Assembly (NCBI GenBank): GCA_963713545.1
Contig: CAVQME010000001.1
Location: forward strand, 130,809 to 194,808
Source: an uncultured Actinomycetes bacterium
GTDB lineage: Bacteria; Actinomycetota; Thermoleophilia; RBG-16-64-13
DNA length: 64,000 bases
Direction of reading: 5' to 3'
Shown: positions 20,357 through 61,759 of the stretch, piece by piece
Layout: each line of letters begins with the position of its first letter
Numbering within the stretch: position 1 is the stretch's first letter
Position numbers and translations under genes: made by a program
The notes under the pieces: generated by a model
Databases searched by the model: none
The model's input: only the letters and a program-made list of their open reading frames with translations
What the model was told of the DNA's origin: nothing

Positions 20357-24682
<4,326 letters not shown>

Positions 24683-33697: not shown

Positions 33698-34120
33698 ATG
33701 CCCAGAGAACTTCGCGTGCGCGCCGTCCACCAGGGTGGCATGCACTTCCTCGCCGATACCGGCGAGCACTCGGTGCGCCTCGATTACCCCCTGCAACCAG
33801 GCGCGACTGCGGGCCCCACCCCTTTGGAGATGCTCCTTGCCAGCCTGGCCGCGTGCGCAGGCGGGACCCTGGCGATGCTGCTCCGCCGGGCGGAAGCGGC
33901 TCCCACCGGTCTCGAGGTCGAAGCCCGGGGGATACGCAGGGACGAACACCCCACCGTTCTCACCGACATCGATCTCGAGTTCGTGGTCCGCGGCCCCGGC
34001 CAGGACCCGGAAGTGGTCGCGCGGAGCCTGCGCATGGCAGAGGAACAGCTCTGCCCCGTCTGGGCCATGCTGAAGCCGGGGACGACCATCAGGTCGTCGT
34101 TCCGGATCGTGGAAGACTAG
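33698..34120 (+). CDS. OsmC/Ohr-family peroxiredoxin-like protein
   Basis: 140 aa with the two conserved Cys (LLASLAACAG...CPVWAML). It overlaps the 3' end of the LarA-like gene by 4 bp, and the two genes are convergent. Confidence 0.75.
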   Translation: MPRELRVRAVHQGGMHFLADTGEHSVRLDYPLQPGATAGPTPLEMLLASLAACAGGTLAMLLRRAEAAPTGLEVEARGIRRDEHPTVLTDIDLEFVVRGPGQDPEVVARSLRMAEEQLCPVWAMLKPGTTIRSSFRIVED

Positions 34121-35397
34121 CTGCGCACCCGGGGTACGGTGATGCTGGCCTCTTTCAGAAAGAGGACCTGTGCGTCATCGCCCTGCCTGGCCAAAGCTGC
34201 GTCAACGGCTGCCTGCACACCGGCGAAGGGGGTCATGAACATGGCCCGCACGTCCTCGTCCGGGAGCGAGGTCACCGCCCAGATCTCCGCCCGTTCGAGG
34301 ACCGCTGCGATGCGCGTGGCCTGGTGTGCACCCAGCCGGTACCCCTCTTGACCGGCGCGCTCGAGAGCCTCCGCGGGCGACCCGGCCCCCGCCAGTATCT
34401 CGAACAAGATCTGGTTCTCCCCCAGACCGAAGGGGCACTCGGACACCAGAATGAGGACGCCCCCGTCTTTGACGGCCAGTGCCCCGCTCTGGAGAACTTT
34501 GTAGGTCTGATAGAAATTGCAGTCCATCGGGTGGGTCGCGACGGCTACCACGATCTCGATACGCCGCTCTATGTCGAGGACGAACTGCTTGTCGGCCACC
34601 GCGACAGCCTGGCGGAAGGTGTCGTCCAAAGAGCCGGCGGCGGCGAAGCCCATGCGGTGCTCCTTGTCGAGCACCAGTTGGATGGAGAAGACCTGTTTGC
34701 CCGCAGTGCCCACAGCCGTCGCTTCCTCGAGATCCTCGTGCACGGGGTTTCCTCCCAAAACGAGGGTCTCAGAGCCGGCCTGCATCGTGAGCTTGTGGTT
34801 GGCCCAGACGGTCTCGTGCCCGGCTAGTCCGGGGAACAACGACTTGCGCCCGCCCGTGTAACCGGCGAAGTAGTGCGGCTCTACGGAGTTGATGAGGAGT
34901 ACGCTCCGGGCCTCCGCCAGGAGTCGGTTGACCCAGATCTCGGTGCCACGCGCGGTCCGGCCGAGGTGCACGAGCCTATCGGTGTCCTTGGCGTCGTGGC
35001 AGAATATGCGGTCTAAATGGGAGCGGGCAAGGTCCGGGCCGAAGATGTGCTCGATCTCAGCGGGAAGCGCCACCCTGTGGGTCCCCGTGGCGATAACGTA
35101 CGCCAGTCGGTTGCCCGGTGCCGCCAGCCAGACTTCCAGATCGGCTTGCAGCACGCGCAGGACTTCGGCCGACGGCGTGGGCCGGGTAGCGTCGTTCACC
35201 ACCACGAGGAGCGGCGACGGTGCCCTAGCCAGGAACTGCTTGAAGTCTCCCTCAGGCCGCCCGATCGCCGCTCTCAGTATCCCGTCCGGATCCTCCGCCG
35301 TCCCAACGTTCGCGCCCAGAACGCCGGCCACTCGGCCGGACTCAAGCTCCACGCGAGCCGTTCCGGTCCCCCAGGGCACGTCGACCCGCATACTCAC
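34117..35397 (-). CDS. LarA-family nickel-pincer cofactor-dependent 2-hydroxyacid racemase/epimerase homologue (DUF2088 N-domain)
   Basis: 426 aa. It has LLVVVNDATRPTP and IATGTHR motifs typical of lactate racemase LarA. No larB/C/E genes are nearby. Confidence 0.65.
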   Translation of the reverse strand: MSMRVDVPWGTGTARVELESGRVAGVLGANVGTAEDPDGILRAAIGRPEGDFKQFLARAPSPLLVVVNDATRPTPSAEVLRVLQADLEVWLAAPGNRLAYVIATGTHRVALPAEIEHIFGPDLARSHLDRIFCHDAKDTDRLVHLGRTARGTEIWVNRLLAEARSVLLINSVEPHYFAGYTGGRKSLFPGLAGHETVWANHKLTMQAGSETLVLGGNPVHEDLEEATAVGTAGKQVFSIQLVLDKEHRMGFAAAGSLDDTFRQAVAVADKQFVLDIERRIEIVVAVATHPMDCNFYQTYKVLQSGALAVKDGGVLILVSECPFGLGENQILFEILAGAGSPAEALERAGQEGYRLGAHQATRIAAVLERAEIWAVTSLPDEDVRAMFMTPFAGVQAAVDAALARQGDDAQVLFLKEASITVPRVRS

Positions 35398-35528: not shown

Positions 35529-36245
35529 ATGGAACACTACAGCTACAGCATCTCTCCCGAGATATTCGCCCGTTTTCCTGGATACGTCAGGGGAGTCGTG
35601 ATCGCTCACGACGTTGACAACAGCCCCTCTCCGCCGGAATTGGTGCAGATGCTGCGGGAAGCCGAGGAGTCGGTGCGCACCCGCGTGAACCTCGAGCAGA
35701 TAGCTGAGGAGCCGCGCATCAAATGCTGGCGCGAGGCGTACCGGGCTTTTGGGGCGAAGCCCGCTGAATTCCGCTCGTCCGTGGAAGCCATGGCCCGGCG
35801 GGCGCTCCGTGGGGACGAGTTGCCGGCGATCAATGCGTTGGTCGACATAGGCAACGTGATGTCCCTACGCCACCTCATCCCGGCCGGCGGGCACGCGATC
35901 GACCTCCTGAACGGCGACATCGAACTTCGCTTCGCCACCGGCGACGAGGACTTCGTGCCCTTCGGCTCGCAAGAGGTGGAGCATCCTCTTCCGGGGGAGG
36001 TGGTCTTCGTCGAAGGGAACACCGTCCTTACTCGCCGCTGGACGTGGCGGCAGGGCAATCACACGCTGACCCTTCCAGAGACCAGGGCCATCGAGTTCAA
36101 CGTGGACGGACTGCCCCCCGTCACTCGGGCCGAGATCGAGACGGCGTGCGTCGAGGTGGCCGAATTGATCCAGCGTCTCTGCGGGGGGACCAGCCGCGTC
36201 GACTACCTGACGGCCGAGACTCCCCGGATCTCTCTGGCACCATAG
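35529..36245 (+). CDS. B3/4-domain (PheT B3/B4-like) cytosolic protein, function unknown
   Basis: 238 aa. It contains ...NALVDIGNVMSLRHLIPAGGHAIDLL..., reminiscent of the tRNA-binding B3/4 fold. Confidence 0.5.
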   Translation: MEHYSYSISPEIFARFPGYVRGVVIAHDVDNSPSPPELVQMLREAEESVRTRVNLEQIAEEPRIKCWREAYRAFGAKPAEFRSSVEAMARRALRGDELPAINALVDIGNVMSLRHLIPAGGHAIDLLNGDIELRFATGDEDFVPFGSQEVEHPLPGEVVFVEGNTVLTRRWTWRQGNHTLTLPETRAIEFNVDGLPPVTRAEIETACVEVAELIQRLCGGTSRVDYLTAETPRISLAP

Positions 36246-36293: not shown

Positions 36294-37493
36294 TTACTCC
36301 ACCGCTTCGACGACGGTCGCTATGCCCTGGCCTCCGGCGATGCACAGCGTGGCCAGTCCGTAGCGGGTCCCTCGCTTCTTCATCTCGTGGAGAAGGGTCG
36401 TGAAGATCCTGGCCCCGGAGCATCCCAGCGGGTGTCCCAGGGCGATCGCTCCACCATTTACGTTGAGGTCGGCCATACGGTCGCCTATGCCCAGCTCCTT
36501 GATGACCGATAAGGCCTGGCCGGCGAACGCCTCGTTGAGCTCGATGAGGCCCATGTCGTCAAAGGTCAGGCCGGCGCGCTCGAGGGCCTTGCGGCTGGCC
36601 GGGGCTGGTCCGATGCCCATGATCTCCGGCGGCACTCCTGCCACCGCCATGCCTCTGATAACCACCATCGGTTTGAGGCCTCTTCGTGCCGCCTCTTCCG
36701 CCGACATGACCACTGTGCAGGCCGCACCGTCGTTACGTCCCGAGGCGTTCCCCGCGGTGACGGTGCCTCCATCCTTGAACACTGCGGGTAGCGCGGCCAA
36801 CCCTTCCAGGGTGCTCTTGCGCGGGTGCTCGTCGGTGTCGAACACCAGCGGAGCGCCTTTGCGCTGCGGGATCTCCACCGGCACGATCTCGTCCTTGAAC
36901 CTGCCGGACTCGATGGCCGCGAAGGCCCTGTTCTGGCTCTGGAGGGAGAAGGCGTCCTGCTCCTCCCGGCTGATACCGTATTTGACCGCCAGGTTCTCTG
37001 CTGTGAGGCCCATGGTCAGGTTGCCGTAGACCTCGTAGGGCTGGGAGCGCGGCTGGCTCTCGGTATTGGAATCCACGAGCACGGCATTGCCGGCCCCATA
37101 CCCATACCGGGCGCCTCTCAAGTAATAGGGGGCCTTGCTCATGTTCTCAACGCCGCCGGCTACCACGATGTCGGCCTGACCGATCATGATGCTTGCCGCC
37201 GCATTGTGGACGGCCTGGAGGCCGGAACCGCACTGGCGCATCACCGTGTAGGCCGGAACCTCTACCGGCAGACCCGCTTTCAGCGAAGCCACTCGGGCCA
37301 AGTTGGCGGCGTCGGCGCTCTGCTTGGTCTGCCCCAAGATGACCTCGTCGACGGCCTCAGGCTCCACCTGGGCCCGAGCCAGGGCTTCCTTGATCACCAG
37401 CTTTCCGAGGTCCTCCGGCTCGACGTCCTTGAGTCCTCCGCCCAGCCTACCCACCGCCGTTCTTACGGCGCTTACGATCACTACTTCGTTCAT
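36294..37493 (-). CDS. acetyl-CoA C-acetyltransferase (thiolase II)
   Basis: The true start is MNEVVIVSAVRTAVGRLGGGLKD, and the 80-codon 5' extension in the ORF track is rejected. Catalytic Cys (MRQCGSGLQAV), ...GHPLGCSGARI..., and CIAGGQG are present. It is co-directional with, and 26 nt downstream of, the Mo-enzyme beta subunit. Confidence 0.9.
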   Translation of the reverse strand: MNEVVIVSAVRTAVGRLGGGLKDVEPEDLGKLVIKEALARAQVEPEAVDEVILGQTKQSADAANLARVASLKAGLPVEVPAYTVMRQCGSGLQAVHNAAASIMIGQADIVVAGGVENMSKAPYYLRGARYGYGAGNAVLVDSNTESQPRSQPYEVYGNLTMGLTAENLAVKYGISREEQDAFSLQSQNRAFAAIESGRFKDEIVPVEIPQRKGAPLVFDTDEHPRKSTLEGLAALPAVFKDGGTVTAGNASGRNDGAACTVVMSAEEAARRGLKPMVVIRGMAVAGVPPEIMGIGPAPASRKALERAGLTFDDMGLIELNEAFAGQALSVIKELGIGDRMADLNVNGGAIALGHPLGCSGARIFTTLLHEMKKRGTRYGLATLCIAGGQGIATVVEAVE

Positions 37494-37519: not shown

Positions 37520-38359
37520 TCAGCTCACTGGATCGAGGATGATCTCGCCCAGATCGACATCTTTCTGCGTGACTACATCGAACTCCCGCGGCACGTAGCC
37601 GGCCAGCTCCACCCGCACCTTGTAGGCCGTGTTCTGCTCCAGGCCTTCGAACTCGAAGTCGCCGTAACTGTCGGAGCGCGTCTCCCTTTTCGCGCCGCCG
37701 GCCTCCAGCATCACGAGGACTCCCTCGGCGCACTCGCCCGGCTCGTCCCGCCGGACGACCTCGCCGGCGATGAAGCGTTTCGGGATGCCCACGTACTTGA
37801 CCAGCGGAGCCGTGTCGTACTCGGGGTGGTAGATCTCGGCCTCCAGCGCGGCCGACAGCTTGGCTATCTCGCTGGTGGGGTCGTCCAAGTCGCCGAACAC
37901 CAGGGCGCCCGTGGGACAGGACTCCACGCAGCGCGGCACCTTCTCGCCTTCATCCAGCCGATGGGCGCACAGGGTGCATTTCTGGGGTATCTCGAGATCC
38001 TTGTTCCAGAAGACCACCCGGTACGGACAGGCGTTCACGATCGCCTTCTGGTCCTTCGACCTGACAGGATCGATCAGCACGATGCCGTCTGGGCGACGAT
38101 ACACGGCCTCATCGGCGGCAACGTCCATGCACGGCGCCGTTTCACAGTGCAGGCAGGGGAGCGGGACATAGTCGAGCTTGGGCTTGGGGTAGCTGCCTCG
38201 CTCGATCTCTCTGATCTGCATCCAGAACTGACCGTCGAGCGGCTGGGGGGCCGAATAAGGGCTGTAGTCGTTGTCGTAGTATTCATCCCGGCAGGCCAGG
38301 AAGCAGTTGTGGCAACCGCTGCACTTGGTCACGTCGATGAGCAGGCTCAGGCGCGCCAT
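37520..38359 (-). CDS. 4Fe-4S ferredoxin-type beta subunit of a pyrogallol-hydroxytransferase-like Mo enzyme, with a C-terminal beta-sandwich extension
   Basis: 279 aa. Cys clusters: CSGCHNCFLAC, CLHCETAPC, CPYRVV, CTLCAHRLDEGEKVPRCVESCP. The C-terminal ~90 aa (SDSYGDFEFEGLEQNTAYKVRVELAGY) resemble a carboxypeptidase-regulatory/transthyretin-like domain. It is paralogous to 44659..45477. Confidence 0.85.
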   Translation of the reverse strand: MARLSLLIDVTKCSGCHNCFLACRDEYYDNDYSPYSAPQPLDGQFWMQIREIERGSYPKPKLDYVPLPCLHCETAPCMDVAADEAVYRRPDGIVLIDPVRSKDQKAIVNACPYRVVFWNKDLEIPQKCTLCAHRLDEGEKVPRCVESCPTGALVFGDLDDPTSEIAKLSAALEAEIYHPEYDTAPLVKYVGIPKRFIAGEVVRRDEPGECAEGVLVMLEAGGAKRETRSDSYGDFEFEGLEQNTAYKVRVELAGYVPREFDVVTQKDVDLGEIILDPVS

Positions 38360-38363
38360 GATC

Positions 38364-40889
38364 TCAGCCCTCCCATTTTTCGATCTCGATGAGGCACGAA
38401 TTGGGCGTCATTCCCGGCGCGTTCTTGGAGGTCATGCGCGACGGGGTGAGCATGCTGACGCACCCGCCTTTGTCCATGGAGTCCGCCTGGCCTGGGATCA
38501 GGGGATCGTAGAGGGCCGACGAAGCGTAGGAGTGGACGATGCCGGGACGGACGCGTCCGGTGACCACCGCGATGCAGAGCACAGAAGCGCGGTCGTTGTA
38601 GAGACGGACGATGTCGTGGTTGTTGATCCCCCGCTTGGCGGCGTCCTCGGGGTTGAGGCGGGCCGGCCACCAGGCGTAGCCGTCCTTCTTGATCCGGTGA
38701 CCGGGTATGTCGTTCAGCCAGTCGGTGTGCTTGTCGTAGTGGCAGTGGAACGTGAACCGCGGGTGAGGGGAGAGGAGCTGCAGCGGGTATTTCTCGAAGA
38801 GCTCGGTAGTGTGGTGCCCTTCCCAGCTGGGGATGTAGCGCGGCACCACCGGCCGCTCGTCGTCGTCGGGGAAGTACTGTTTGAGGCTCACCGACTCGAA
38901 CTCGATCTTGCCGCTGAAGGTGCCCAGCTCACCGCTCTTCTCGGTGAGGCGCTTGGGGTTGCCCAGATCCGGAGTGTCACAGGGCCGCCCCTCGTAGAAC
39001 CAGCGCATGCCCGGCGTCGGCTTGTAGTCGTCGTTGATGTTGATGATGTGATAGCCCTTACGGTTGAACTCCTCCCAGCTGATGTCTTTGGGCAGGTCGG
39101 AGATATCGAAGAAGGCTTTGACCCAGTCGACCTCAGTCTTGCCGCCGTCGGTGTACTCGTCTCTCAGGCCCATCTTCTCGAAGATGAGCGCGAAGATCTC
39201 GTAGTCCGACTTGGATTCCCACAGGGGCTCGATGCATTTCTGCTCGCGCACTATGACCCGGTAGTCGCACCCGCTGCTGGCGTGAACTGTGTAGCCATTG
39301 ATGGCAGCCCACTCGCCCATGTCGTCGCGCTCGAAGTTGGTGCAGGCCGGGAGGATGACGTCGGCCATACGGGTCTCGCTGTTGTACCAGATGTCCTGGT
39401 TGACCACGAACTCGAGCTTGGGACTCTGGTACATCCGCACCCACTTGGTGGTGTCGCTCATGGTGCCGATGAACGAGCCACCGTAGCGGTACCACAACTT
39501 GATCTCGGAATAGCCCTCCATGGGGTAGTCGAAATGCATGAACTGCTGCTCCAGGCTCCGGCCGCAGAAACCTTCCCCATACCACTCCACCGGCGGGTCC
39601 AGGATCGCCTCGGGCACAGTCAGCCGCCACAAGCGCTGTTTGGTCGTGTTCACCGGGATGTACTTGCACGCCTTCGTAGACATGGATATGCGGGCTTCCG
39701 GCTCGCCGTAGCTGGGGACCCACCGGGTGGTGTCGGACGGCGCCCCCATGGTCGTGCCCCAGATGCTGCGGCCCGGGGCACCCAGCCCCTGCATGGCCTG
39801 CAGAAGCACCATCATGCGGGCCCATTCGGTGCCGTAGGCTTCCCGGCAGGCGCCGCCTTCCCCTCCGCGCGAGCCGCCCGACAGGATCGTGCGCTTGGCG
39901 GCCCATTCGCGAGCGAGGGTGCGGATCACGCGGGCTTCGATGCCACACTCCTCGGCAGCCCACTCAGGCGTCTTGGGCTGACCGTCGACCTCGCCCACGA
40001 CGTACTTCCTGAACTCCTCGAACCCGATGGTGCGGTTCGCGACGTAGTCCTTGTTGTAGGTGCCCTCGGTGATCCAGACGAAAGCTATGGCCATGGCCAT
40101 GGCAGTGTCGGTGCCCATCCGCGGGGTGATCCACTTACCGCCCATGACGGCGTTGGTGTAGTTGTAGAAGGGGTCGATGAAGACCATCTTGACGCCCTTC
40201 TCCTTGAGCCACTGGCGCCATAGAGCGGAGTCCTGGCCGGAATAGGTGCCGCGGGTGCTATCTGGGTCGTTCGACCAGTAGACGATCATCTCCGCGTTCT
40301 GCAGGGCGTCGCCCAGCATGTCGTAGGGCTCAGGCATGCCCAGCCGCCAGAAGAAGCCGTAACTGTGCGTAGCTCCCCAGTGCCACCCCTCCCAGCTGTC
40401 GGGGTTGTCCAGTACCGGAGTGCCTTCCATCATGTTCAGAAAACGGGCGAAGGGTCCCATCTTGTAGCCGACGATGCCCCAGTTGTGGTGGGAGGAGGTC
40501 ATGCCGCTGATGGCCGACCCGCCATAGGTATCTTTGACCCGCTTGAGCTCGCTCGCCACCAGGGTCGCGGCCTCGTCCCAGGAGATTCGCTCGTAGCGTG
40601 ACTTGCCCCTGTTCTGAGGATTGCGCTCGCCGTTCGGATCGAAGTCGACCCGTTTCATGGGGTACTTGATGCGCTCGTCGGAATAGATCCGGCGGCGTTC
40701 GGCGTGGATGTAGGGTGAGAGGGTGACTTTCTTCGGAGGCGAGTAGCTCTTGCCCCCGGCCTCGATCACCCAGGGCTTCATGTCTTTCTCGTCCACCACC
40801 AAGGGACGGACCCTCGTGATCTTCCCGTCCTTGACGTAGACAGAGACCGGCCCGCTGTTGGTGCAACTCGCGAAAACCTTTTCAGCCAT
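38364..40889 (-). CDS. molybdopterin (bis-PGD) oxidoreductase large subunit, pyrogallol-hydroxytransferase/transhydroxylase-like; no N-terminal FeS Cys motif and no Tat signal
   Basis: 841 aa. Its motifs match the PHT alpha subunit as remembered: RISWDEA, NPDSWEGWHWG, ILPACTNFER, CGMT at the C-terminus. There is a single Cys in the N-terminal 60 aa and no RRxFLK. Confidence 0.85.
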   Translation of the reverse strand: MAEKVFASCTNSGPVSVYVKDGKITRVRPLVVDEKDMKPWVIEAGGKSYSPPKKVTLSPYIHAERRRIYSDERIKYPMKRVDFDPNGERNPQNRGKSRYERISWDEAATLVASELKRVKDTYGGSAISGMTSSHHNWGIVGYKMGPFARFLNMMEGTPVLDNPDSWEGWHWGATHSYGFFWRLGMPEPYDMLGDALQNAEMIVYWSNDPDSTRGTYSGQDSALWRQWLKEKGVKMVFIDPFYNYTNAVMGGKWITPRMGTDTAMAMAIAFVWITEGTYNKDYVANRTIGFEEFRKYVVGEVDGQPKTPEWAAEECGIEARVIRTLAREWAAKRTILSGGSRGGEGGACREAYGTEWARMMVLLQAMQGLGAPGRSIWGTTMGAPSDTTRWVPSYGEPEARISMSTKACKYIPVNTTKQRLWRLTVPEAILDPPVEWYGEGFCGRSLEQQFMHFDYPMEGYSEIKLWYRYGGSFIGTMSDTTKWVRMYQSPKLEFVVNQDIWYNSETRMADVILPACTNFERDDMGEWAAINGYTVHASSGCDYRVIVREQKCIEPLWESKSDYEIFALIFEKMGLRDEYTDGGKTEVDWVKAFFDISDLPKDISWEEFNRKGYHIININDDYKPTPGMRWFYEGRPCDTPDLGNPKRLTEKSGELGTFSGKIEFESVSLKQYFPDDDERPVVPRYIPSWEGHHTTELFEKYPLQLLSPHPRFTFHCHYDKHTDWLNDIPGHRIKKDGYAWWPARLNPEDAAKRGINNHDIVRLYNDRASVLCIAVVTGRVRPGIVHSYASSALYDPLIPGQADSMDKGGCVSMLTPSRMTSKNAPGMTPNSCLIEIEKWEG

Positions 40890-40943
40890 GAATCATCCGC
40901 TCCCTTGAGATTGGCGGTGGTCGGCGGTCCACATTTGGCAAAA

Positions 40944-40982
40944 CGATATCTCGATATTGGCGAGCAATACTGTTAATATCGT
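40944..40982. promoter_or_regulatory. AT-rich palindromes in the divergent promoter region between the PHT-like operon 1 and iclR1 (candidate IclR operator)
   Basis: cgATATCtcGATATtggcgagcaatactgttAATATCG. This comprises ATATC-N2-GATAT and CGATATT-N16-AATATCG inverted repeats in an otherwise GC-rich region. Confidence 0.3.
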
Positions 40983-41051
40983 AGAGTAGGCATGGGGCAT
41001 TTGCAAGGCACACGCTCATTATAGAGGTCGGTTCCAATCGACAGGGGAGAC

Positions 41052-41861
41052 ATGAGCACGACTACAGATGCGCGGGAAACCGACCCCTTCCAGGTCAGAG
41101 CGCTCGCAAGGGGGCTTTCGATCCTCTGCCTCTTCGATGTAGACCATCGCGAGTGGACCATCGACGAGATGGCCGAGCAGACCGGCCTCGTGCGCATGAC
41201 AGTCTATCGCATGGTGCGGACGCTCGAATCGATGGCCTTCCTTGTCCGCGACGCCACGACCAACCGTTACCGCCTCGGTCCGGCGGCGCTCGCCATGACC
41301 TACGTGTCGGACGATCAATCGGAGTTCATAGAGGCGGCCCGGCCGTACCTCGAGTCGCTCGTGCAGACGACCGGAGAATCGGTCACGCTGGCCGTTGAGG
41401 TGGACGGTTTCCCGGTATGCGTCGACATTGTCAACACGACACGCCCCTTCCGACGGAGAACGGCCCCGGGTCGTATCCTCGGCGATATCGCTTCGGTCCA
41501 CAGCAAGATCTTCGCCGCGCTCAGAGCCCCGGAAGAGCGGGAGACGATACTTACCAAGACCTATCCCCAGTTGACCCCGAACAGAGTCACCGATCCGAGG
41601 GAGCTGGCGCAGGAACTGGACCAGATCGCGAAGGAGAACGTGGCAGTGGACATCGAGGGGCTCTACCCGGGCATCTGTGCGGTGGGCGCCCCGGTGCGCG
41701 ATCAGTTGGGCGAGGTGATAGCCACCATCTCGGTCGTAGTCCCGTCAGGGCGGTTCGGAACGGCTGAGCGCGCCCTGTGTACCGAGGCCGTCAAAGCCTC
41801 TGCCGCCTCGTTTTCGGCTTACCTGGGCTGGAACCCAGCCGCTTCCGGACAGACGCGATGA
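41052..41861 (+). CDS. IclR-family transcriptional regulator
   Basis: 269 aa with an N-terminal wHTH (LSILCLFDVDHREWTIDEMAEQTGLVRMTVYRMVRTL) and a C-terminal effector domain. GGGGAG sits 4 nt upstream of the ATG. It lies between the two PHT-like operons and is paralogous to 55157..55981. Confidence 0.9.
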   Translation: MSTTTDARETDPFQVRALARGLSILCLFDVDHREWTIDEMAEQTGLVRMTVYRMVRTLESMAFLVRDATTNRYRLGPAALAMTYVSDDQSEFIEAARPYLESLVQTTGESVTLAVEVDGFPVCVDIVNTTRPFRRRTAPGRILGDIASVHSKIFAALRAPEERETILTKTYPQLTPNRVTDPRELAQELDQIAKENVAVDIEGLYPGICAVGAPVRDQLGEVIATISVVVPSGRFGTAERALCTEAVKASAASFSAYLGWNPAASGQTR

Positions 41862-41890
41862 GCGGACGAGATGCTAACGATCACTGTTGG

Positions 41891-41936
41891 GGCCGGTGCT
41901 GCCCCGTGTGACACGGGGTCCGGCCTCTTGATTATT
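41891..41936 (+). terminator. intrinsic terminator after iclR1
   Basis: GGCCGG..CCCCGTG-tga-CACGGGG.CCGGCC forms a compound hairpin followed by TCTTGATTATT. Confidence 0.5.
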
Positions 41937-42030
41937 CCGGGTCGTTAAGGTAGTAAGGGGGATGGGGGCCCTCGCAAGCGAACCGCTCCGAGTACGCTTA
42001 CCACTGACGAACGAAAGGACGACGATTGCG

Positions 42031-44658
42031 ATGACGGACGAGGGACGCAAGAAGGTCGATGTAAGCGTCGATAAGACAACGATCAAGAACTTGGCGATGG
42101 GCGGCCTGCTCGGTGGCGGCGGAGAGTGCTTCGTCGACGTCAAAGACGGCAAAGCCGTCCGGATCAGACCCTTCAAGTACGACTGGAAGTACGACTACGA
42201 CAAGCTGAACCCGTGGAAGATCGAACGTAACGGTGAGACCCTGGGTCCCCTGCCCAAAGCTCTGCCCGCGCCCTTCTCGCTCGCATATAAGAAGCGGACC
42301 TTCTCCCCGAACCGCATCAAGTTCCCCATGAAGCGGGTCGACTGGGACCCCGACGGCGAGAGGAACCCGCAGAACCGGGGCAAGAGCAAGTACAAGAGGA
42401 TCTCCTGGGACGAGGCCACCGACCTCATCGCAGCCGAGATCAGGCGGATCCACAAGGAATACGGGCCGCTCGCCATCCTTGCCCAGGGTGACGGTCACGG
42501 CGAGAACAAGACCATCCACACGCCCCACGGCCACCAGGCGCGGCTTCTCGACATGATGGGCGGCTTCACCCAGCAGGTCCGTAACCCGGACAGCTGGGAG
42601 GGCTGGTATTGGGGCGCCAAGCACGTCTGGGGCCAGGGCTTCCAGGGCATGATGTCTCCGGCCCAGAACCTCATCAAGGACATCTCCGAGAACTGCGACA
42701 TGGTCCTCAAATGGGGCTGCGACGAGGAGACCACCCCCTGGGGATTCACAGGGCAGTACGCCAGCCGGATCTCCCAATTCTGGACCCGGGCCGGCATCAA
42801 GCAAGTCTACATCTGCCCCGACCTCAACTATGCCGCCGCCGTTCACGGCGACAAATGGATCCCGGTGCTGCCCAACACCGACGCGGCTCTCCAGTTGGCC
42901 ATAATCTATGTGTGGCTCACCGAGGACACCTGGGACAAGGAGTACGTCGCCACCCACGCGGTCGGCATGGACAAGATCGCCGACTACGTCCTCGGTAACG
43001 ATGAAGAAGGCATTCCCAAAACCCCCGAGTGGGCTTCGAAGAGATGCGGGGTGCCCGAGTGGACCATCAAGGCCCTCGCCCGGGCGTTCGCCAAGAACAC
43101 CACGTCGATCATCCACTACTTCGGTGGCTCGGCTTTCAGGGGCCCGTACTCGCACGAACCGGGCCGGCTGGAATGCGTCCTCCTCGGCATGCAGGGCCTT
43201 GGCGGCCCGGGTGTCCACCAGTGCCAGATGACCTACTTCGGCATGCCGAGGGCGGAGGGACTAGGCAGCGTGCGCTTCTTCAACCCCGAACTGCCGGAGC
43301 GCCTCACGAAGCCCTGCTGGACCACGGTCCACGCCTGGGGCCCGCAGCTCATCCCCAAGACCCTCATCCAGGACGCCATCCTGAAGGCCCCGCTGGTCTT
43401 CTACGGCAGCGGCGGCCAGGAGTGCCAAACCGAGGAGCAGTTCGACCGCTACACCTATCCCATCGCGAAGGAAAAGGGCGGCGTCCCCATCCACATGATC
43501 TGGACCGACACGCCGTGCCGCATCACCTGCTGGAATCACGGCAACTGGACCATCGAGGCCATGAAGGACCCGAGCATCGAGTTCGTCCTCGCCCAGCACC
43601 CGTGGCTCGAGAACGACTGCCTCTACGCCGACATCATCCTACCGGCCAACACCACCCTCGAGGTCGAGGACATCGTCACCACGGTCCGGCAGGGCCCGCA
43701 TTTCGCAAGCGTCTCGATCCAGGAGCAGTCCGTCCTCCCCATCGGCGAGTCGAAGAGCGACTACGAGATCGTGCTGGCGGTCGCCGACAAACTGGGCATG
43801 ACCGAGGAGTTCACCGGCGGTCTCTCCACCCTCGACCTGCAGAAGCTGGTCTTCGACGCCATGAAGATGGACAAGCTCACCACCTGGGAGGACTTCTACG
43901 AGAAGAAGACCTACGTGTACGCGACCGCTCACGACTGGGAGCAGGACCCGCCCGGCTTCCGCCTGTTCTACGAGGACCCGAAAGCCAATCCACTCAAGAC
44001 CCCGAGCGGCCTTCTCGAGTTCTATTCAGAGCGTTTGGCGCAGCACTTCCCCGACGACAAAGAACGCCCGCCGTTCCCGAAGTGGGTCCCGAAGGGCATC
44101 ACGCACGACGAGGATCTTTCGAGCGAGCGGGCCGACATGTTCCCCTTGCTTCTCATGTCCAACCACCCGCGCTGGCGCACCCACGCTCAAGGCGACGATA
44201 TCAGCTGGGCCAGGGAGACTCCCACCGGCAAGGTCCTGGGCTTCGACGGCTACAGGTACGAGCCCATCTGGATCAACCCCATCGACGCCGAGGCCCGCTG
44301 CATCAAAGACGGCGACGTGGTCAAGATCTTCAACGAGAGGGGCATCGTGCTCGTCGGCGCGCGTGTGTGGGAGAGGATCAGGCCCGGCGTGGTCTACGTG
44401 GACCACGGTGCTCGCCATGATCCCCTGGTCCCGGGCAAGGTGGACCGGGGCGGGGCCATCAACACGATCGCTCCGAACGGGCTCACCTCAAAGAACGCGT
44501 GTGGCCAAGCCACCAGCGGCTACCTGGTCGACGTGCAGAAGGTCAAGAACGAGGAATGGGAAGCATGGCGTAGGGACTACCCCGAAGCTTTCGCCAGGGA
44601 ATACGACCAAGGCGCCGGACTGCGCTTCGACGCCTGGATCGAAGGAGGCAGGGACTAG
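42031..44658 (+). CDS. molybdopterin (bis-PGD) oxidoreductase large subunit, second pyrogallol-hydroxytransferase-like paralogue (cytoplasmic; no FeS motif, no Tat signal)
   Basis: The ORF-track start at 41962 has no usable RBS. The ATG at 42031 has AAGGA 13 nt upstream and gives MTDEGRKKVDV.... It shares DPDGERNPQNRGKSKYKRISWDEA, NPDSWEGWYWG and ILPANTTLE with 38364..40889. Confidence 0.85.
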   Translation: MTDEGRKKVDVSVDKTTIKNLAMGGLLGGGGECFVDVKDGKAVRIRPFKYDWKYDYDKLNPWKIERNGETLGPLPKALPAPFSLAYKKRTFSPNRIKFPMKRVDWDPDGERNPQNRGKSKYKRISWDEATDLIAAEIRRIHKEYGPLAILAQGDGHGENKTIHTPHGHQARLLDMMGGFTQQVRNPDSWEGWYWGAKHVWGQGFQGMMSPAQNLIKDISENCDMVLKWGCDEETTPWGFTGQYASRISQFWTRAGIKQVYICPDLNYAAAVHGDKWIPVLPNTDAALQLAIIYVWLTEDTWDKEYVATHAVGMDKIADYVLGNDEEGIPKTPEWASKRCGVPEWTIKALARAFAKNTTSIIHYFGGSAFRGPYSHEPGRLECVLLGMQGLGGPGVHQCQMTYFGMPRAEGLGSVRFFNPELPERLTKPCWTTVHAWGPQLIPKTLIQDAILKAPLVFYGSGGQECQTEEQFDRYTYPIAKEKGGVPIHMIWTDTPCRITCWNHGNWTIEAMKDPSIEFVLAQHPWLENDCLYADIILPANTTLEVEDIVTTVRQGPHFASVSIQEQSVLPIGESKSDYEIVLAVADKLGMTEEFTGGLSTLDLQKLVFDAMKMDKLTTWEDFYEKKTYVYATAHDWEQDPPGFRLFYEDPKANPLKTPSGLLEFYSERLAQHFPDDKERPPFPKWVPKGITHDEDLSSERADMFPLLLMSNHPRWRTHAQGDDISWARETPTGKVLGFDGYRYEPIWINPIDAEARCIKDGDVVKIFNERGIVLVGARVWERIRPGVVYVDHGARHDPLVPGKVDRGGAINTIAPNGLTSKNACGQATSGYLVDVQKVKNEEWEAWRRDYPEAFAREYDQGAGLRFDAWIEGGRD

Positions 44659-45477
44659 ATGAAGGTATTCGTTATTGACGTCGGCCTCTGCGTGGGCTGC
44701 TACGCCTGCCAGTTCGTCTGCAAGGACGAGCACGTCGGCAATGACTGGTCGCCGATCGCCAAGCCCCAGCCCGACACCGGCCAATTCTGGATGCGGTTGG
44801 ACGAACACATCAGAGGGACCGTGCCGAAAGTCGAGATGCACTACGTCCCTAACCCCTGCATGCACTGCGACGACCCGCCCTGCATCCCGCCCTGTCCGAT
44901 CGAGGGCGCCATCTACAAGCGAGACGACGGCTTGGTCGTCATCGACTCGGTGAAGTGCACCGGCTGCCGGTTGTGCGTCGACGCCTGCCCGTATGACGCC
45001 ATCTACTTCAATGACGACCTGAACCTCGCCCAGAAGTGCACCGGCTGTGCCCACCTGCTCGACGGCGGCGAGTGGAAGATCCCCAGGTGCGCAGATGCCT
45101 GCCCCACCCTTGCCATCAAGTTCGGCGAGGAGAGCGAATTCGCGGCCGAGATCGCCCAGGCCGAGGTGTTGAAGCCCGAGCTCGGAGCCAAGCCCCGGGT
45201 CTACTACTTGAACATTCCTAAGAGGTTCGTCGGCGGTACGGTGTACGACCCGGCTCAGAAAGAGGTGGTCATCGGCGCCACCTGTACCCTCACTGCAGTG
45301 AAGGGCGGCCCGGCCCTGACCGCCACCACCGACTACTTCGGTGATTTCTGGTTCAGGGGATTGGCCGACGGCACGTATAAGCTGACCATCTCGGCCAAGG
45401 GATTCGCCGATAAGACCTTGGCTGACATCAGCACTGAGAAGGACGTCAATCTCGGCGACATAGCGTTGACCAAGTAA
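44659..45477 (+). CDS. 4Fe-4S ferredoxin-type beta subunit (PHT-like) with a C-terminal beta-sandwich domain; translationally coupled (TAGATG) to the alpha subunit
   Basis: 272 aa. It is paralogous to 37520..38359 (GQFWM, YVPxPCxHC, AQKCTxCAH, NIPKRF, DVNLGDI). Confidence 0.85.
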   Translation: MKVFVIDVGLCVGCYACQFVCKDEHVGNDWSPIAKPQPDTGQFWMRLDEHIRGTVPKVEMHYVPNPCMHCDDPPCIPPCPIEGAIYKRDDGLVVIDSVKCTGCRLCVDACPYDAIYFNDDLNLAQKCTGCAHLLDGGEWKIPRCADACPTLAIKFGEESEFAAEIAQAEVLKPELGAKPRVYYLNIPKRFVGGTVYDPAQKEVVIGATCTLTAVKGGPALTATTDYFGDFWFRGLADGTYKLTISAKGFADKTLADISTEKDVNLGDIALTK

Positions 45478-45655: not shown

Positions 45656-46471
45656 CTAACCCCAGGCGGCCCCCAGATGGCCCACGCCGGCGGCGAAGGC
45701 GTCGACGATATGGACGCCTCCGTCGGCCAGCACGGTCGAGCCGGTCATGAAGCCTGAGTCGTCGCTCGCCAAGAACACGAAAACACCCGCGATGTCGGGC
45801 GGGTCGCCTATCCGATGCAGGGGGACGTTCGTGCGCACCTTGTCGAAGACTCCGTCCATGTCGGTGTTCAAAAGTTCCGCCAGGGGTTTGAAGTTCATCT
45901 CCAGCATGCTCGTACGTATGGGGCCAGGGCAGACGACGTTGCAGCGCACGTTATGCTTGCCGTAGTCGAGCGCCACCTGCTTGGTCAGATGAATGATCCC
46001 CGCCTTGGTGGTGCAGTAGGCCGGCGCGCCCGGTACGGCCACCACTCCTGCCAGGGAGGATACGTTGACGATCGAACCTCCACCGCCCTCGATCATCTTC
46101 GGGATCGCCGCTTTCATCATGAGGAACGGCCCGGTGAGATTGACCTCCAGCTGCTGGCGCCACACCGCCGGGTCCAGTTCGACGACGTTCTCGTTCATCT
46201 CGATCGCCGCGTTGTTCACGAGGACGTCCAGGCGGCCGCTGAAGCCGAGGGCTGCCTCGACCATCTTCTGCGCGTTCCCGTCTTCCGAGACATCACCGCT
46301 GAATACGGTCACGCTCCCGGCGGGCAGTGCGTCTGCGACTGCCTGCAACATCTCCCGGCGCCGGCCGGTGATGCAGACCTTTGCCCCCTCTGCGACGAAG
46401 CGCTCCACGACGGCCCGGCCGATGCCGGTGCCACCCCCGGTGATGAGGGCCACCTTGCCTTCGAGCTGCAT
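45656..46471 (-). CDS. short-chain dehydrogenase/reductase (SDR)
   Basis: The true start is MQLEGKVALITGGGTGIGRA. NNAA and the YxxxK active site (APAYCTTKAG) are present. The 51-codon Arg-rich N-terminal extension in the ORF track is rejected. Confidence 0.85.
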   Translation of the reverse strand: MQLEGKVALITGGGTGIGRAVVERFVAEGAKVCITGRRREMLQAVADALPAGSVTVFSGDVSEDGNAQKMVEAALGFSGRLDVLVNNAAIEMNENVVELDPAVWRQQLEVNLTGPFLMMKAAIPKMIEGGGGSIVNVSSLAGVVAVPGAPAYCTTKAGIIHLTKQVALDYGKHNVRCNVVCPGPIRTSMLEMNFKPLAELLNTDMDGVFDKVRTNVPLHRIGDPPDIAGVFVFLASDDSGFMTGSTVLADGGVHIVDAFAAGVGHLGAAWG

Positions 46472-46539: not shown

Positions 46540-47466
46540 CTATTCCTTTGGCGGATCGCCGTCGAACCCGCCGCTCGGATTCAAGAAGATCTTGCCGGGT
46601 TCGCCTGGCAGTGGCGTGAACCAATCGGGGCAGCTGTGCGGGAACAGCAGTCTCGCCTGCCAGTGGAGGGCGAAATCCTCAGCCTTCACGTCGCCATAGT
46701 ACTTGTTCATGCCCTCCACCAGCTCAGCGCCGTTCGTGGCGGTGCCGTAGACCTCGTCGTAGACATCCAGATAGCGGAGAGACCAATCGACACAGTCTGT
46801 GTAGGTGCGAGACGTTTCTTCCTGGACCTCCTCGAGGATTCGCAACTTGGCCTCGTCGTGATGCCCGGGGATGACTACCCGCGGGTCGAAATCCAGCAGC
46901 TGGCGGATCGAGGTCCTCCACCTCACCCGCCGCTCCACGTTACTCTCGATCGGCCACAGGTTGCAGTCGTGGAAGGCCACATCCGTCGCGCATGCGACTC
47001 CTATCGAGGGGACCCAGACCACGGAGTTGTTTATGCTGTCGCCCTCCCAGCCGTCTGAGAACAGCAGCTCCTCGCCCTCCAATTCGAGACGAGGATCATG
47101 GAGCGGCATGGGGATCGTCGTCTTGGTGGGGATGTCGGGACCGAAACGGTCGATGGCCCACATGTCGACTTTGTCACTTGAGGTGAACACCACGTCCCTG
47201 ACTACGCTGGGCAAGGCCACGATCTTGGCTTGAGGGAAGGCGTGTTGTAGCACGCCCAGGCCGAAGTGATGATCAGGGTGGAAGTGCGACACGTAGATAT
47301 GGGTGAGGTTCTTCCTCATGGGGATGATCTGGGCGACCATCTTGTGAGTGTCGCTGAGGAGCTGGGAGGCGTCTATCAGAATCGCGTCCTTCTCCCCGTA
47401 GAAGAGCGTGGAGTTGCTGTTGAAGCCCAGATAGCTATGCAGAAACACCTTGTATTTGAGTGGCAC
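46540..47466 (-). CDS. MBL-fold metallo-hydrolase
   Basis: 308 aa with the HxHxDH motif (SHFHPDHHFG). Confidence 0.75.
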   Translation of the reverse strand: MPLKYKVFLHSYLGFNSNSTLFYGEKDAILIDASQLLSDTHKMVAQIIPMRKNLTHIYVSHFHPDHHFGLGVLQHAFPQAKIVALPSVVRDVVFTSSDKVDMWAIDRFGPDIPTKTTIPMPLHDPRLELEGEELLFSDGWEGDSINNSVVWVPSIGVACATDVAFHDCNLWPIESNVERRVRWRTSIRQLLDFDPRVVIPGHHDEAKLRILEEVQEETSRTYTDCVDWSLRYLDVYDEVYGTATNGAELVEGMNKYYGDVKAEDFALHWQARLLFPHSCPDWFTPLPGEPGKIFLNPSGGFDGDPPKE

Positions 47467-47577: not shown

Positions 47578-48684
47578 TCATGCCTCGTAAGGCGTGTACC
47601 CGATACCCACTCCCTCGGAGACCGATCGGTTCACCAGTTTGCCCTTGTGCACATTGAGCCCCTTGCGCAGAGGCACGTCGGCCTGTAGCGCCGCCTTGTA
47701 TCCCAGGTTGGCCAGCTTGGACACGTAGGGGAAGGTGGCGTTGGTAAGGGCGAAGGTGGAAGTACGAGAGACGCAGCCCGGCAGGTTGGCCACGCAGTAC
47801 ATGGTCACTCCATCGACCGTGAAGACCGGGTCCTCGTGGGTGGTGGGCACCGCCCCTTCCACGCAGCCGCCCTGGTCGATGGCCACGTCCACGATGACCG
47901 AGCCCTTCCTCATTTGGGCGATCATGTCCCTGGTGACCACCTTCTTGGCTTTGGCTCCGGGGATAAGCAGCCCGCCGATCACGAGATCGGCTCCCGCCAC
48001 AGCCTCCTCGATGTTGTAGACGTTGGAGGCCAGCACACTGAGACGCCCCTCGAGCACGTCGGCTAGATAGCGCAGCCGGTCCAGGTTGATGTCGAGGATG
48101 GTGACGTTGGCACCCATACCCAGAGCCACCTTGGCCGCGTTGATCCCGACCACGCCGCCTCCGATGATGGCCACGTTCGCGGGAGGCGTACCGGGTACCC
48201 CGGCGAGGAGCACTCCGCTGCCACCGTTCTCTTTTTCCAGCCAGTGGGCTCCCACCTGGATGGAGAGCTTGCCCGCTACCTCGCTCATGGGGGTGAGCAA
48301 GGGGAGAGAGCCGTTATCGAGCTGCACCGTCTCGTAGGCGATGCCGACGATCTCGCGCTCGAGCAAGGCCTGAGTGAGCTCCGGGGCGGGAGCCAAGTGC
48401 AGGTAGGTGAAGAGCACCTGGTCTTTTCTAAGGAGGGGATACTCCTGGGGCAGGGGCTCCTTCACCTTCACCACCATCTCTGCCTCGGCAAAGACGGCCT
48501 CGGCCGTGGGCCGGAGCTGAGCCCCGGCGCCGACGTACTGGGCGTCGGAGATGCCGGAGCCCTCTCCGGCCGAGGCCTGGATGATGACGGTGTGACCGTC
48601 CTCCACCAGGCTCCGCACTCCGGCAGGTACCAGCGCCACCCGGTACTCGTGGTTCTTCACTTCCTTGGGCACACCGACGATCAT
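47578..48684 (-). CDS. ald: alanine dehydrogenase
   Basis: The true start is MIVGVPKEVKNHEYRVALVP, preceded by GGAAGGGAAG. It has the Rossmann GxGxxG and is similar to AlaDH. The 91-codon N-terminal extension in the ORF track is rejected. Confidence 0.88.
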   Translation of the reverse strand: MIVGVPKEVKNHEYRVALVPAGVRSLVEDGHTVIIQASAGEGSGISDAQYVGAGAQLRPTAEAVFAEAEMVVKVKEPLPQEYPLLRKDQVLFTYLHLAPAPELTQALLEREIVGIAYETVQLDNGSLPLLTPMSEVAGKLSIQVGAHWLEKENGGSGVLLAGVPGTPPANVAIIGGGVVGINAAKVALGMGANVTILDINLDRLRYLADVLEGRLSVLASNVYNIEEAVAGADLVIGGLLIPGAKAKKVVTRDMIAQMRKGSVIVDVAIDQGGCVEGAVPTTHEDPVFTVDGVTMYCVANLPGCVSRTSTFALTNATFPYVSKLANLGYKAALQADVPLRKGLNVHKGKLVNRSVSEGVGIGYTPYEA

Positions 48685-48796
48685 GCTCTTCCCTTCCTTC
48701 TTGACCGATTCGACGGTAGCTGTAGCCGCGACGCTCCGGTCTCCACCAGTTCCCCCCGGATCGGGAGCGAGCTTCTGGCCCCCGACGCCCGGAGGC

Positions 48797-50677: not shown

Positions 50678-50854
50678 CAGAGAGCACCTCCCATCTAAGA
50701 CAGTGAGCCTGCCTACCCCCAGGAACCCGTGATACGCCCTCATCCTAACTGTTCCGCGAGCGCCGCGCAAACGCAGTGAGTGGTCGCAGACGTCTTCCCA
50801 TGCCCGTGGCGGTCGAGAATCACGCTCCCACAAACGGTATTGTGCGTAACGTTG

Positions 50855-51773: not shown

Positions 51774-51792
51774 AGGAAGGAGGGGAAGCCAC

Positions 51793-52764: not shown

Positions 52765-52793
52765 AGCACCAGCTTGGTGCCGAGGAGATATTG

Positions 52794-55981: not shown

Positions 55982-56044
55982 AGTCGTTTCTCACCGGTGC
56001 TAGGCGCGACTGTTGCCTGCAGGCGAAGTCCCGGTCTCGAGAGA

Positions 56045-56818: not shown

Positions 56819-56876
56819 GAGAAGCCGTCCTTTCCTTTCAGCGTTTCCTGTCGGATCTGCCTGTGAGCCCAGGCCC

Positions 56877-57731: not shown

Positions 57732-57760
57732 GGTGGTGACTCCTCTGACTCCCGTGTCGC

Positions 57761-60945: not shown

Positions 60946-60952
60946 CGGTCGC

Positions 60953-61713: not shown

Positions 61714-61759
61714 GGAGACCTCCTCCCAACCCTTGAGGATCCACACGCCCGAGTCCTTC

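Follow-up and report, generated by a model that had tools for sequence, protein, structure and literature searches.

Two ancient paralogous pyrogallol-hydroxytransferase-like molybdoenzymes in a putative trihydroxybenzene catabolic island of an uncultured actinobacterium

The window analysed here, a 64,000-nucleotide stretch of contig CAVQME010000001.1 from an uncultured Actinomycetes bacterium, carries two gene pairs that each encode a large (alpha) and a small (beta) subunit of a molybdenum-bis(pyranopterin guanine dinucleotide) (Mo-bisPGD) enzyme related to pyrogallol-phloroglucinol transhydroxylase (PHT; AthL/BthL). The pairs flank the gene for an IclR-type regulator (IclR1), with alpha1, beta1 and a thiolase gene on the minus strand and alpha2 and beta2 on the plus strand, an arrangement proposed in a preliminary description of the locus, the coordinates of which we confirm. 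The thiolase gene was also correctly placed there in the alpha1-beta1 operon, although it lies outside the interval 37520-45477 covered by that description. The core of the locus comprises the following features.

36294-37493, minus strand: thiolase (acetyl-CoA C-acetyltransferase) with Thiolase_N and Thiolase_C domains, third gene of the alpha1-beta1 operon
37520-38359, minus strand: beta1, ferredoxin subunit of 279 aa, beginning 4 nt past alpha1
38364-40889, minus strand: alpha1, Mo-bisPGD large subunit of 841 aa with PF21423, PF00384 and PF01568
40890-41051, no strand: divergent control region between alpha1 and iclR1, a 162-bp spacer
41052-41861, plus strand: IclR1 transcriptional regulator with PF09339 (HTH_IclR) and PF01614 (IclR_C)
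42031-44658, plus strand: alpha2, Mo-bisPGD large subunit of 875 aa, member of a deep clade (A2)
44659-45477, plus strand: beta2, ferredoxin subunit of 272 aa, abutting the alpha2 stop codon

The alpha, beta and thiolase genes and iclR1 are all intact in the window. The thiolase ATG at 37493 lies 26 nt past the beta1 stop and is preceded by a AGGAAAGG ribosome-binding site, and the encoded protein scores 481 bits against TIGR01930, over the model cut-off. The start of alpha2 was set by the element GAAAGGA-N11-ATG, which is kept in 15 orthologous loci, and by the lengths of its homologues (871-877 aa).

On the evidence of their sequences, alpha1beta1 and alpha2beta2 are both members, in the broad sense, of the cytoplasmic PHT (AthL/BthL) family. 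The top match of each large subunit in the Protein Data Bank (PDB) is the PHT large subunit of Pelobacter acidigallici (4V4C chain A), at 877 bits for alpha1 and 433 bits for alpha2, and the second-best matches of both are Tor/Dor enzymes (220-270 bits). With E-values of 1e-128 or lower, the fold of the two proteins is beyond doubt. Besides molybdopterin domains, both carry the AhtL-like first domain PF21423 (74 bits in alpha1 and 34 bits in alpha2; cut-off 27), and PF04879 is absent from both. Their N-terminal regions, MAEKVFASCTNSG... and MTDEGRKKVDVS... respectively, contain one cysteine each; neither a twin-arginine nor a Cx2Cx3C motif was found in them, nor a Sec leader, and upstream extension of the open reading frames (ORFs) gains none. 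A twin-arginine translocation (Tat) leader or iron-sulfur (FeS) motif hidden by a misplaced start was considered and ruled out, as no extension is possible and the alpha2 start is conserved. None of the NCBIfam models reached its cut-off with the alpha or beta subunits. The view that these are cytoplasmic PHT-like Mo-bisPGD enzymes rather than respiratory reductases, with no Tat leader and no N-terminal FeS motif even after start correction, is thus upheld by the PHT top match, by PF21423 and by the serine ligand discussed below. The preliminary assignment to a 'PHT/catechol-dehydroxylase clade', on the other hand, merged two clades; acetylene hydratase (2E7Z) scores only about 52-55 bits against alpha1 and alpha2, compared with 433-877 bits for PHT.

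Phylogenetic resolution within the family was obtained from an alignment of 367 sequences, for which the PHT reference was rebuilt from the 4V4C alignment (866 residues, numbering verified; third database query), and from a neighbour-joining tree of 98 of them, computed with no bootstrap and with RhL and DbhL not included. In this tree the PHT clade and two further clades, A1 and A2, are each monophyletic. Within the PHT clade identity is at least 58%, and one member matches the crystallised enzyme at 96%. The A1 clade, which holds alpha1, is 68-100% identical internally, 45-60% identical to the PHT clade and sister to it, and the A2 clade, which holds alpha2, forms a deep branch 31-43% identical to both other clades. 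Identity to the characterised PHT is about 50% for alpha1 and about 34% for alpha2, and neither groups with the P. acidigallici enzyme, so that placement in the broad PHT family stands and placement inside the clade of the characterised enzyme does not. Both A1 and A2 are widespread, each being conserved at 65% identity or above across phyla, and abundant in uncultured Actinomycetota, Chloroflexota, Desulfobacterota and SAR324; A2 includes RBG Chloroflexi proteins. A recent tandem duplication and a pseudogene are both ruled out: the alpha subunits are 36% and the beta subunits 43% identical, all are intact, and they fall into separate clades. As judged from these comparisons, alpha1 and alpha2 are ancient paralogues.

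The clades also differ in the residues predicted to line the active site, given here in PHT numbering and with roles that we take to be those described by Messerschmidt et al. 2004; at each position so assigned, 4V4C has the expected residue type. D174, S175 and W176 are invariant in the aligned A1 (120), A2 (119) and PHT-clade (120) homologues and in the window proteins, and the alignment places Ser175, the molybdenum ligand within NPDSWEGW, in both alpha1 and alpha2. The signatures RISWDEA and ILPA(C/N)T are likewise present in both as first described, whereas NPDSWEGWHWG is not common to both, alpha2 reading NPDSWEGWYWG. Members of A1, alpha1 among them, retain H144, H145, W147, Y152, D174, S175, W176, Y404 and Y560, and 120/120 of the clade carry R153K and W354E, a change that may reflect a different isomer or co-substrate. 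Retained in alpha2 are H144, D174, S175, W176 and R359; A2 and alpha2 show H145G, Y152T, R153P, W354F and Y404L and a deletion of Y560, and the position of W147 is occupied by N in alpha2 and by C in most A2 members. The residue set of PHT sensu stricto (H144, R153, D174, W354, Y404, Y560) is missed narrowly by alpha1 and clearly by alpha2.

A second difference lies in the small subunits, the cluster content of which was derived from cysteine motifs alone. Both match the PHT small subunit (4V4C_B), beta1 at 202 bits over residues 4-273 and beta2 at 194 bits over its full length, and both combine a 4Fe-4S dicluster domain with a CarboxypepD_reg-like C-terminal beta-sandwich, the latter in line with the preliminary description. 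The three-cluster architecture that was attributed to both holds for beta1, which has 12 cysteines and three predicted [4Fe-4S] clusters as in BthL of PHT, the third group (CxxCxxCxxxCP) having given way to a Lys-rich stretch. It does not hold for beta2, which has 16 cysteines in four complete groups, including CTGCRLCVDACP, and hence four predicted clusters. The third group is kept in 61 of the 63 parsed A2-clade beta subunits and in no beta subunit of A1, PHT or other clades. By analogy with the four-cluster subunits of complex iron-sulfur molybdoenzymes, we infer that without it one cluster in the middle of the chain should be missing and the electron wire interrupted; a broken wire in beta1 fits a redox-neutral transhydroxylase, and an intact one in beta2 fits an enzyme exchanging electrons. 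Combined with the lack of Tyr404 and Tyr560 in alpha2, the four predicted clusters of beta2 suggest that alpha1beta1 and alpha2beta2 are unlikely to share one mechanism.

Further genes to either side of this core supply the metabolic and regulatory context.

34117-35397, minus strand: LarA-like Ni-pincer racemase homologue (Pfam; NCBIfam below cut-off), a lineage-specific neighbour
35529-36245, plus strand: stand-alone B3_4-domain protein (Pfam), a lineage-specific neighbour
about 45656-46456, minus strand: SDR1, short-chain dehydrogenase/reductase (SDR; Pfam/NCBIfam matches)
46540-47466, minus strand: MBL-fold hydrolase (Pfam/NCBIfam matches)
47578-50833, minus strand: alanine-dehydrogenase/PNT-family gene and aldehyde:ferredoxin oxidoreductase (AFOR) gene, between the MBL gene and Fer3
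50997-55013, plus strand: Fer3 (four-cluster ferredoxin, likely start 50997), NrfD anchor and Mo3 (Pfam matches)
52794-55013, plus strand: Mo3, Mo-bisPGD enzyme with an N-terminal Fe4S4 domain, acetylene hydratase-like
55157-58768, minus strand: block of IclR2, SDR2, BKACE and 3HCDH (Pfam matches)
within 55157-58768, minus strand: IclR2 (PF09339 and PF01614), 53% identical to IclR1
56045-56818, minus strand: SDR2, SDR family, candidate phloroglucinol reductase
56877-57731, minus strand: BKACE (Pfam match), candidate triacetate acetoacetate-lyase
57761-58768, minus strand: 3HCDH, 3-hydroxyacyl-CoA-dehydrogenase family, candidate 3-hydroxy-5-oxohexanoate dehydrogenase
beyond 3HCDH, last in the gene order of the island: ABC transporter with a Peripla_BP_6 binding protein (Pfam)

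The phloroglucinol pathway of Clostridium scatologenes consists of PGR, DPGC, TfD, TAL and a thiolase; TAL yields acetoacetate, acetoacetyl-CoA is also among the products, and the thiolase converts acetoacetyl-CoA to acetyl-CoA (PMC10470551). SDR, BKACE, 3HCDH and thiolase in the window belong, at family level only, to the same families as PGR, TAL, TfD and the thiolase of that pathway. The match of the SDR-BKACE-3HCDH set thereby identifies the window thiolase as the probable acetoacetyl-CoA step, in which case the first and last pathway steps would be encoded in one operon and the middle steps in the IclR2-linked block. The link between thiolase and ring cleavage proposed earlier is thus retained, and the suggested beta-oxidation of an alicyclic compound is replaced by a phloroglucinol route on account of these genes, which also narrow the substrate range of enzymes previously described as of unknown substrate. 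In our view the region from 34 to 60 kb is best explained as an anaerobic catabolic island for trihydroxybenzenes derived from polyphenols. Compared with the C. scatologenes cluster, it has no cyclase-family DPGC gene, a family encountered only in related loci, is split into two IclR-linked blocks and has two PHT-family enzymes built in.

Comparison of 166 related loci (numbered with the prefix L), among them 80 A1-centred genome loci and 83 A2-centred loci, revealed that both alpha-beta pairs recur near phloroglucinol-pathway genes and cyclase-type ring hydrolases, and that relatives of both directly adjoin phloroglucinol-pathway genes in other phyla. Neighbours of A1 genes in the 80 loci include beta1 (76), SDR2-like genes (35), thiolase (22), BKACE (12) and 3HCDH (11), and alpha2 with beta2 is found nearby in 24/80 (Actinomycetota, Desulfobacterium, SAR324). 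Most loci from Actinomycetota, and two of the three from Bacillota, have the thiolase gene directly 3' of beta1, DPGC-like cyclase-family genes occur in 15/80 A1 loci, mostly as tandem pairs, and homologues of the SDR2-BKACE-3HCDH block adjoin alpha1beta1 in L049, L050, L062, L069, L077 and L078. The last of these, from a Desulfitobacteriia metagenome-assembled genome (MAG), combines two cyclase genes, 3HCDH, SDR, an acetylene hydratase-like Mo enzyme, alpha1, beta1, BKACE, thiolase and a CoA transferase; L027, from a Desulfobacteraceae MAG, combines TRAP genes with alpha1, beta1, a cupin, SDR, two cyclases and an ADP-forming acyl-CoA synthetase. TRAP and cupin genes are also present in L082, a true-PHT locus, but there with UbiD/LpdD gallate decarboxylase genes alongside.

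In A2-centred loci, many of them on short contigs, beta2 is next after alpha2 in 59/83. A2 pairs adjoin SDR and cyclase genes in L085, L106 and L132, and cyclases occur in several A2 loci; the order in L132, all on one strand, is alpha2, beta2, GntR, cyclase, SDR, 3HCDH, alpha1, beta1. Besides alpha2, IclR, alpha1 and beta1, L037 (1-8924) encodes a third alpha, which bears the PHT signature R153/W354 and is not accompanied by a separate beta gene. L042 likewise contains three PHT-family clades, its third alpha being split into two overlapping ORFs by a frameshift or an assembly error.

In Actinomycetota, SDR1 and the MBL-fold hydrolase regularly accompany the island: both adjoin beta2 in L001, L002, L087 and L091, and SDR1 alone does so in L092 and L139. 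A non-orthologous protein, the MBL-fold hydrolase, could thus have taken the place of the cyclase-type dihydrophloroglucinol hydrolase, which none of these loci carries. In L002 and L091 the same island occurs in a different order and with the alanine-dehydrogenase/PNT and AFOR genes not there, and the island has therefore been rearranged between species; AFOR is also found near alpha1 in L013 and L016.

Mo3 provides a third molybdoenzyme of a different kind. Its best structural match is acetylene hydratase (2E7Z, 291 bits), and it keeps the Cys141 ligand and has His in place of the catalytic Asp13 of acetylene hydratase (CKSCHGGC). No Tat leader was found in Mo3, and from its predicted features it is a cytoplasm-facing, NrfD-anchored acetylene-hydratase-like enzyme. 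Catechol dehydroxylases cluster near acetylene hydratase and away from PHT, and have ferredoxin and anchor partners (PMC7028382). It is accordingly Mo3, and not alpha1 or alpha2, that resembles these enzymes (Dadh, Cadh, Hcdh, Cldh) by sequence: alpha1 and alpha2 lie outside the catechol dehydroxylase/acetylene hydratase clade, and Mo3 shares with Dadh-type enzymes a 4Fe-4S protein and a membrane anchor as partners but differs in the missing Tat leader and in the His at Asp13. At least 10 loci of Actinomycetota, Chloroflexota and SAR324 (L015, L042, L052, L053, L084, L085, L095, L096, L097, L157) have a Mo3 orthologue (67-85% identity) next to alpha2beta2 or to the island, and pairing of a PHT-family enzyme with an acetylene hydratase-like enzyme is recurrent across loci. 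A strict alpha2-Mo3 module finds only partial support: where the flanks are long enough, roughly half of the close relatives in A2 have Mo3, but many A2 loci have none, and L015 has Mo3 without alpha2. A second acetylene hydratase-like type (L078:7373-9613), 34% identical to Mo3, with a CHGGC motif and without a ferredoxin or anchor partner, lies directly upstream of alpha1 in L048, L049, L051, L077, L078 and L080; in L063 and L072 it is no more than about 2.5 kb away from alpha1-beta1. It occurs in Desulfobacterota, Bacillota and a few other loci.

With regard to regulation, the spacer between alpha1 and iclR1 contains an operator-like element at 40944-40984, CGATATCTCGATATT-N15-TAATATCGTAG followed by a ATTTGCAAGG box, with CGATAT half-sites in direct and inverted orientation. 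The blocks of this element are near-invariant in 16 orthologous Actinomycetota loci, whereas the flanking DNA varies, and no second copy of the motif was found in the 64 kb window. IclR1 adjoins alpha1 in 22/80 loci and stands between alpha1 and alpha2 wherever alpha2 is present. We posit that this predicted operator probably serves IclR1 in controlling both the iclR1 gene itself and the divergent alpha1 operon; to the regulatory wiring, previously noted as uncharacterised, the conserved element adds a named candidate site. In the spacer between iclR1 and alpha2, which contains one stem-loop, only the ribosome-binding site is conserved. Promoter and terminator scans gave counts not above chance, and the one promoter-like site upstream of alpha2 (41908-41935) is offered as a lead only.

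The presence of rpoBC, nusG and ribosomal genes in the window indicates chromosomal DNA. The nearest genome locus, with an alpha1 of 95% identity, is from an uncultured Actinomycetes MAG, and further near relatives are Actinomycetota, Thermoleophilia and Gaiellales MAGs, one of them from the Rifle aquifer. The host is an uncultured, anaerobic, Thermoleophilia/Gaiellales-like member of the Actinomycetota. The rpoC ORF (20357-24682, minus strand; 1441 aa) encodes a beta-prime subunit with an unusual fusion: its last domain, at residues 1335-1393, matches PF03118, the C-terminal domain of the alpha subunit of RNA polymerase (E = 8e-12). At the ends of the island, the LarA-like and B3_4 genes are conserved past the thiolase in 13-14 Actinomycetota loci, and no LarBCE genes were found in the window. 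The ABC-transporter ORFs (60240-62766, minus strand) look fragmented, possibly through frameshifts or assembly errors, the ATPase (60240-60911) covering no more than the final third of the ABC_tran profile, and the permease (62050-62766) no more than the first third of its own profile.

We propose, with moderate confidence, the following explanation of the locus, being more confident of the pathway assignment than of the explanation overall and less confident of the role of alpha2beta2. What is observed directly is the order of the genes, the families to which they belong, the structure of the clades, the patterns of residues and cysteines and the synteny; the pathway steps are deduced from family and synteny. 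Since alpha1 keeps the Ser molybdenum ligand and the His/Asp/Tyr/Tyr set, alpha1beta1 would most likely carry out the same redox-neutral hydroxyl transfer as PHT, converting pyrogallol or a close isomer to phloroglucinol. PHT itself turns pyrogallol and 1,2,3,5-tetrahydroxybenzene into phloroglucinol and tetrahydroxybenzene, with no net redox change. SDR2 would then reduce phloroglucinol, an enzyme outside those identified would open the ring, 3HCDH would oxidise the ring-opening product, and BKACE would cleave it to acetoacetate and acetoacetyl-CoA, the latter being converted to acetyl-CoA by the thiolase predicted to be co-transcribed with alpha1beta1. For alpha2beta2, the most likely role would be that of a redox-active enzyme that hydroxylates or dehydroxylates a related phenol and so supplies this pathway as well; more speculatively, the NrfD-anchored Mo3 encoded nearby may be its partner in electron exchange.

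Several observations weigh against this explanation. In common with the rest of its clade, alpha1 falls outside the PHT clade at about 50% identity to the characterised enzyme and has the invariant K153/E354, and its substrate or co-substrate may therefore differ. All A1 and A2 members seen are MAG-derived, sequence-only entries with generic or wrong names (TMAO reductase). SDR2 is not separable by sequence from other SDRs, and searches of the PDB and NCBIfam for evidence of a phloroglucinol reductase returned generic SDR matches only for both SDR1 and SDR2. Searched by tblastn with the cyclases of L078, neither the window nor any of the Actinomycetota loci yielded a cyclase-type DPGC; the DPGC gene may lie elsewhere in the genome or may have been replaced. 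With the gallate decarboxylase proteins UbiD and LpdD of a PHT locus as queries, tblastn likewise gave no match in the window or in the A1 loci, those from Actinomycetota included, whereas true PHT genes adjoin UbiD/LpdD. Many of the longer A2 loci carry none of the neighbour genes of the window, and the four clusters predicted for beta2 may be no more than an ancestral trait.

Among the alternatives, a sequential transhydroxylation chain in which both pairs, together with a true PHT encoded elsewhere, lead from hydroxyhydroquinone or tetrahydroxybenzenes to phloroglucinol is improbable, though the least so. The co-occurrence of three PHT-family clades in the single clusters L037 and L042 speaks for it, as do the positions of A1 and A2 near phloroglucinol-pathway genes and the A1-specific K153/E354 pocket, which suggests another hydroxybenzene isomer. 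Brune, Schnell and Schink are said to have demonstrated such a chain in cell extracts of Pelobacter massiliensis in 1992, and we know of no published gene assignment for it. Against this chain, alpha2 lacks the Tyr residues that hydroxyl transfer presumably requires. Slightly less probable again is a reading in which alpha2beta2 and Mo3 form a coupled hydroxylase/dehydroxylase pair, either moving a hydroxyl group around the ring via a dihydroxy- or tetrahydroxybenzene or making the tetrahydroxybenzene co-substrate of alpha1beta1. Electrons would be cycled via the FeS wires or menaquinone, and an example route would run from pyrogallol or hydroxyhydroquinone through resorcinol to phloroglucinol. 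If true, such a pair would supply the unassigned enzymes for the conversion of hydroxyhydroquinone to phloroglucinol or explain the source of the PHT co-substrate in vivo.

It is a little less probable still that the two pairs are redundant isoenzymes, both catalysing the pyrogallol-phloroglucinol transhydroxylation. PHT is the top structural match of both alpha subunits, and in aquifer Chloroflexi MAGs each genome was annotated with a pair of PHT operons by Hug et al. 2013 (PMC3971608). Against this, the pairs are only 36% identical with each clade conserved at 65% or more across phyla, alpha2 lacks Y404, Y560, Y152, W147 and R153, and beta2 has the fourth cluster. The persistence of the pairing across phyla (the 24/80 loci above) points to distinct roles, and the union of A2, A1 and a PHT-signature alpha in L037, with three clades in a single cluster, argues against simple redundancy.

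Equally improbable is that one of the pairs, be it alpha1beta1 or alpha2beta2, hydroxylates its substrate oxidatively with water in the manner of RhLS of Aromatoleum/Azoarcus anaerobium or DbhLS of Thauera aromatica AR-1, with hydroxyhydroquinone rather than phloroglucinol as product. The complete electron wire of beta2 is what such enzymes, which need electron transfer, would demand, and an NrfD-anchored complex is nearby; the lack of the third cluster group in beta1, however, does not fit. RhLS and DbhLS also feed an oxidative hydroxyhydroquinone route under sigma54 control, whereas the window combines IclR regulators with phloroglucinol-pathway genes, and not with a hydroxyhydroquinone dehydrogenase and sigma54 regulators. 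Darley et al. reportedly found in 2007 that the resorcinol cluster includes a hydroxyhydroquinone dehydrogenase. Sigma54 regulators are reported for the resorcinol cluster (PMC10084136). In favour of such a hydroxylase, RhL and PHT form one Ser-ligated family acting on hydroxybenzenes, to which DbhLS also belongs (PMC10100899).

That both are S- or N-oxide reductases (TMAO, DMSO, biotin sulfoxide), as many source annotations state, is very improbable: JGI calls homologues 'trimethylamine-N-oxide reductase' and Tor/Dor enzymes are the second-best PDB matches, but all NCBIfam reductase models score far under their cut-offs, Tor/Dor are periplasmic and without a beta subunit where here a PHT-type beta follows each alpha with no Tat leader, and the PHT-specific first domain is present.

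The enzyme of P. acidigallici (AthL/BthL, also PgtL) is the best structural match of both pairs. Common to PHT and both pairs are a cytoplasmic alpha-beta Mo-bisPGD organisation, the FeS-free AhtL-like first domain, Ser175 in NPDSW and a beta subunit with a C-terminal beta-sandwich. The H144, D174, Y404 and Y560 set and the three-cluster beta are shared with alpha1beta1 only, in which alpha1 differs from PHT by the invariant substitutions R153K and W354E.

PHT-like genes in MAGs are already well known, and two such operons per genome were noted in Chloroflexi in 2013, in the MAGs RBG-2 and RBG-1351, likewise subsurface anaerobes; both operons were treated there as PHT, with no clade, active-site or cluster-count split described (PMC3971608). 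Our literature search found no description of the three-clade split or of the invariant pocket substitutions of A1, of the loss of Tyr404/Tyr560 in A2 with a retained fourth cluster, or of the recurrent link to acetylene hydratase-like Mo enzymes.

Homologues of PHT are used as routine markers for anaerobic pyrogallol and tannin breakdown in peat, aquifer, marine and gut metagenomes. The label 'PHT-like' hides at least three old cross-phylum clades with differing pockets, one of which differs in its predicted FeS cluster count, and only one of the three contains a characterised enzyme. While the pathway logic is ordinary, the A1 and A2 enzymes are plausible candidates for hydroxybenzene conversions that have no assigned genes. 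If their substrates differ (among pyrogallol, hydroxyhydroquinone, tetrahydroxybenzenes and resorcinol), inferences on anoxic polyphenol turnover drawn from marker genes would need refining, and the unassigned enzymes leading from hydroxyhydroquinone to phloroglucinol would become testable.

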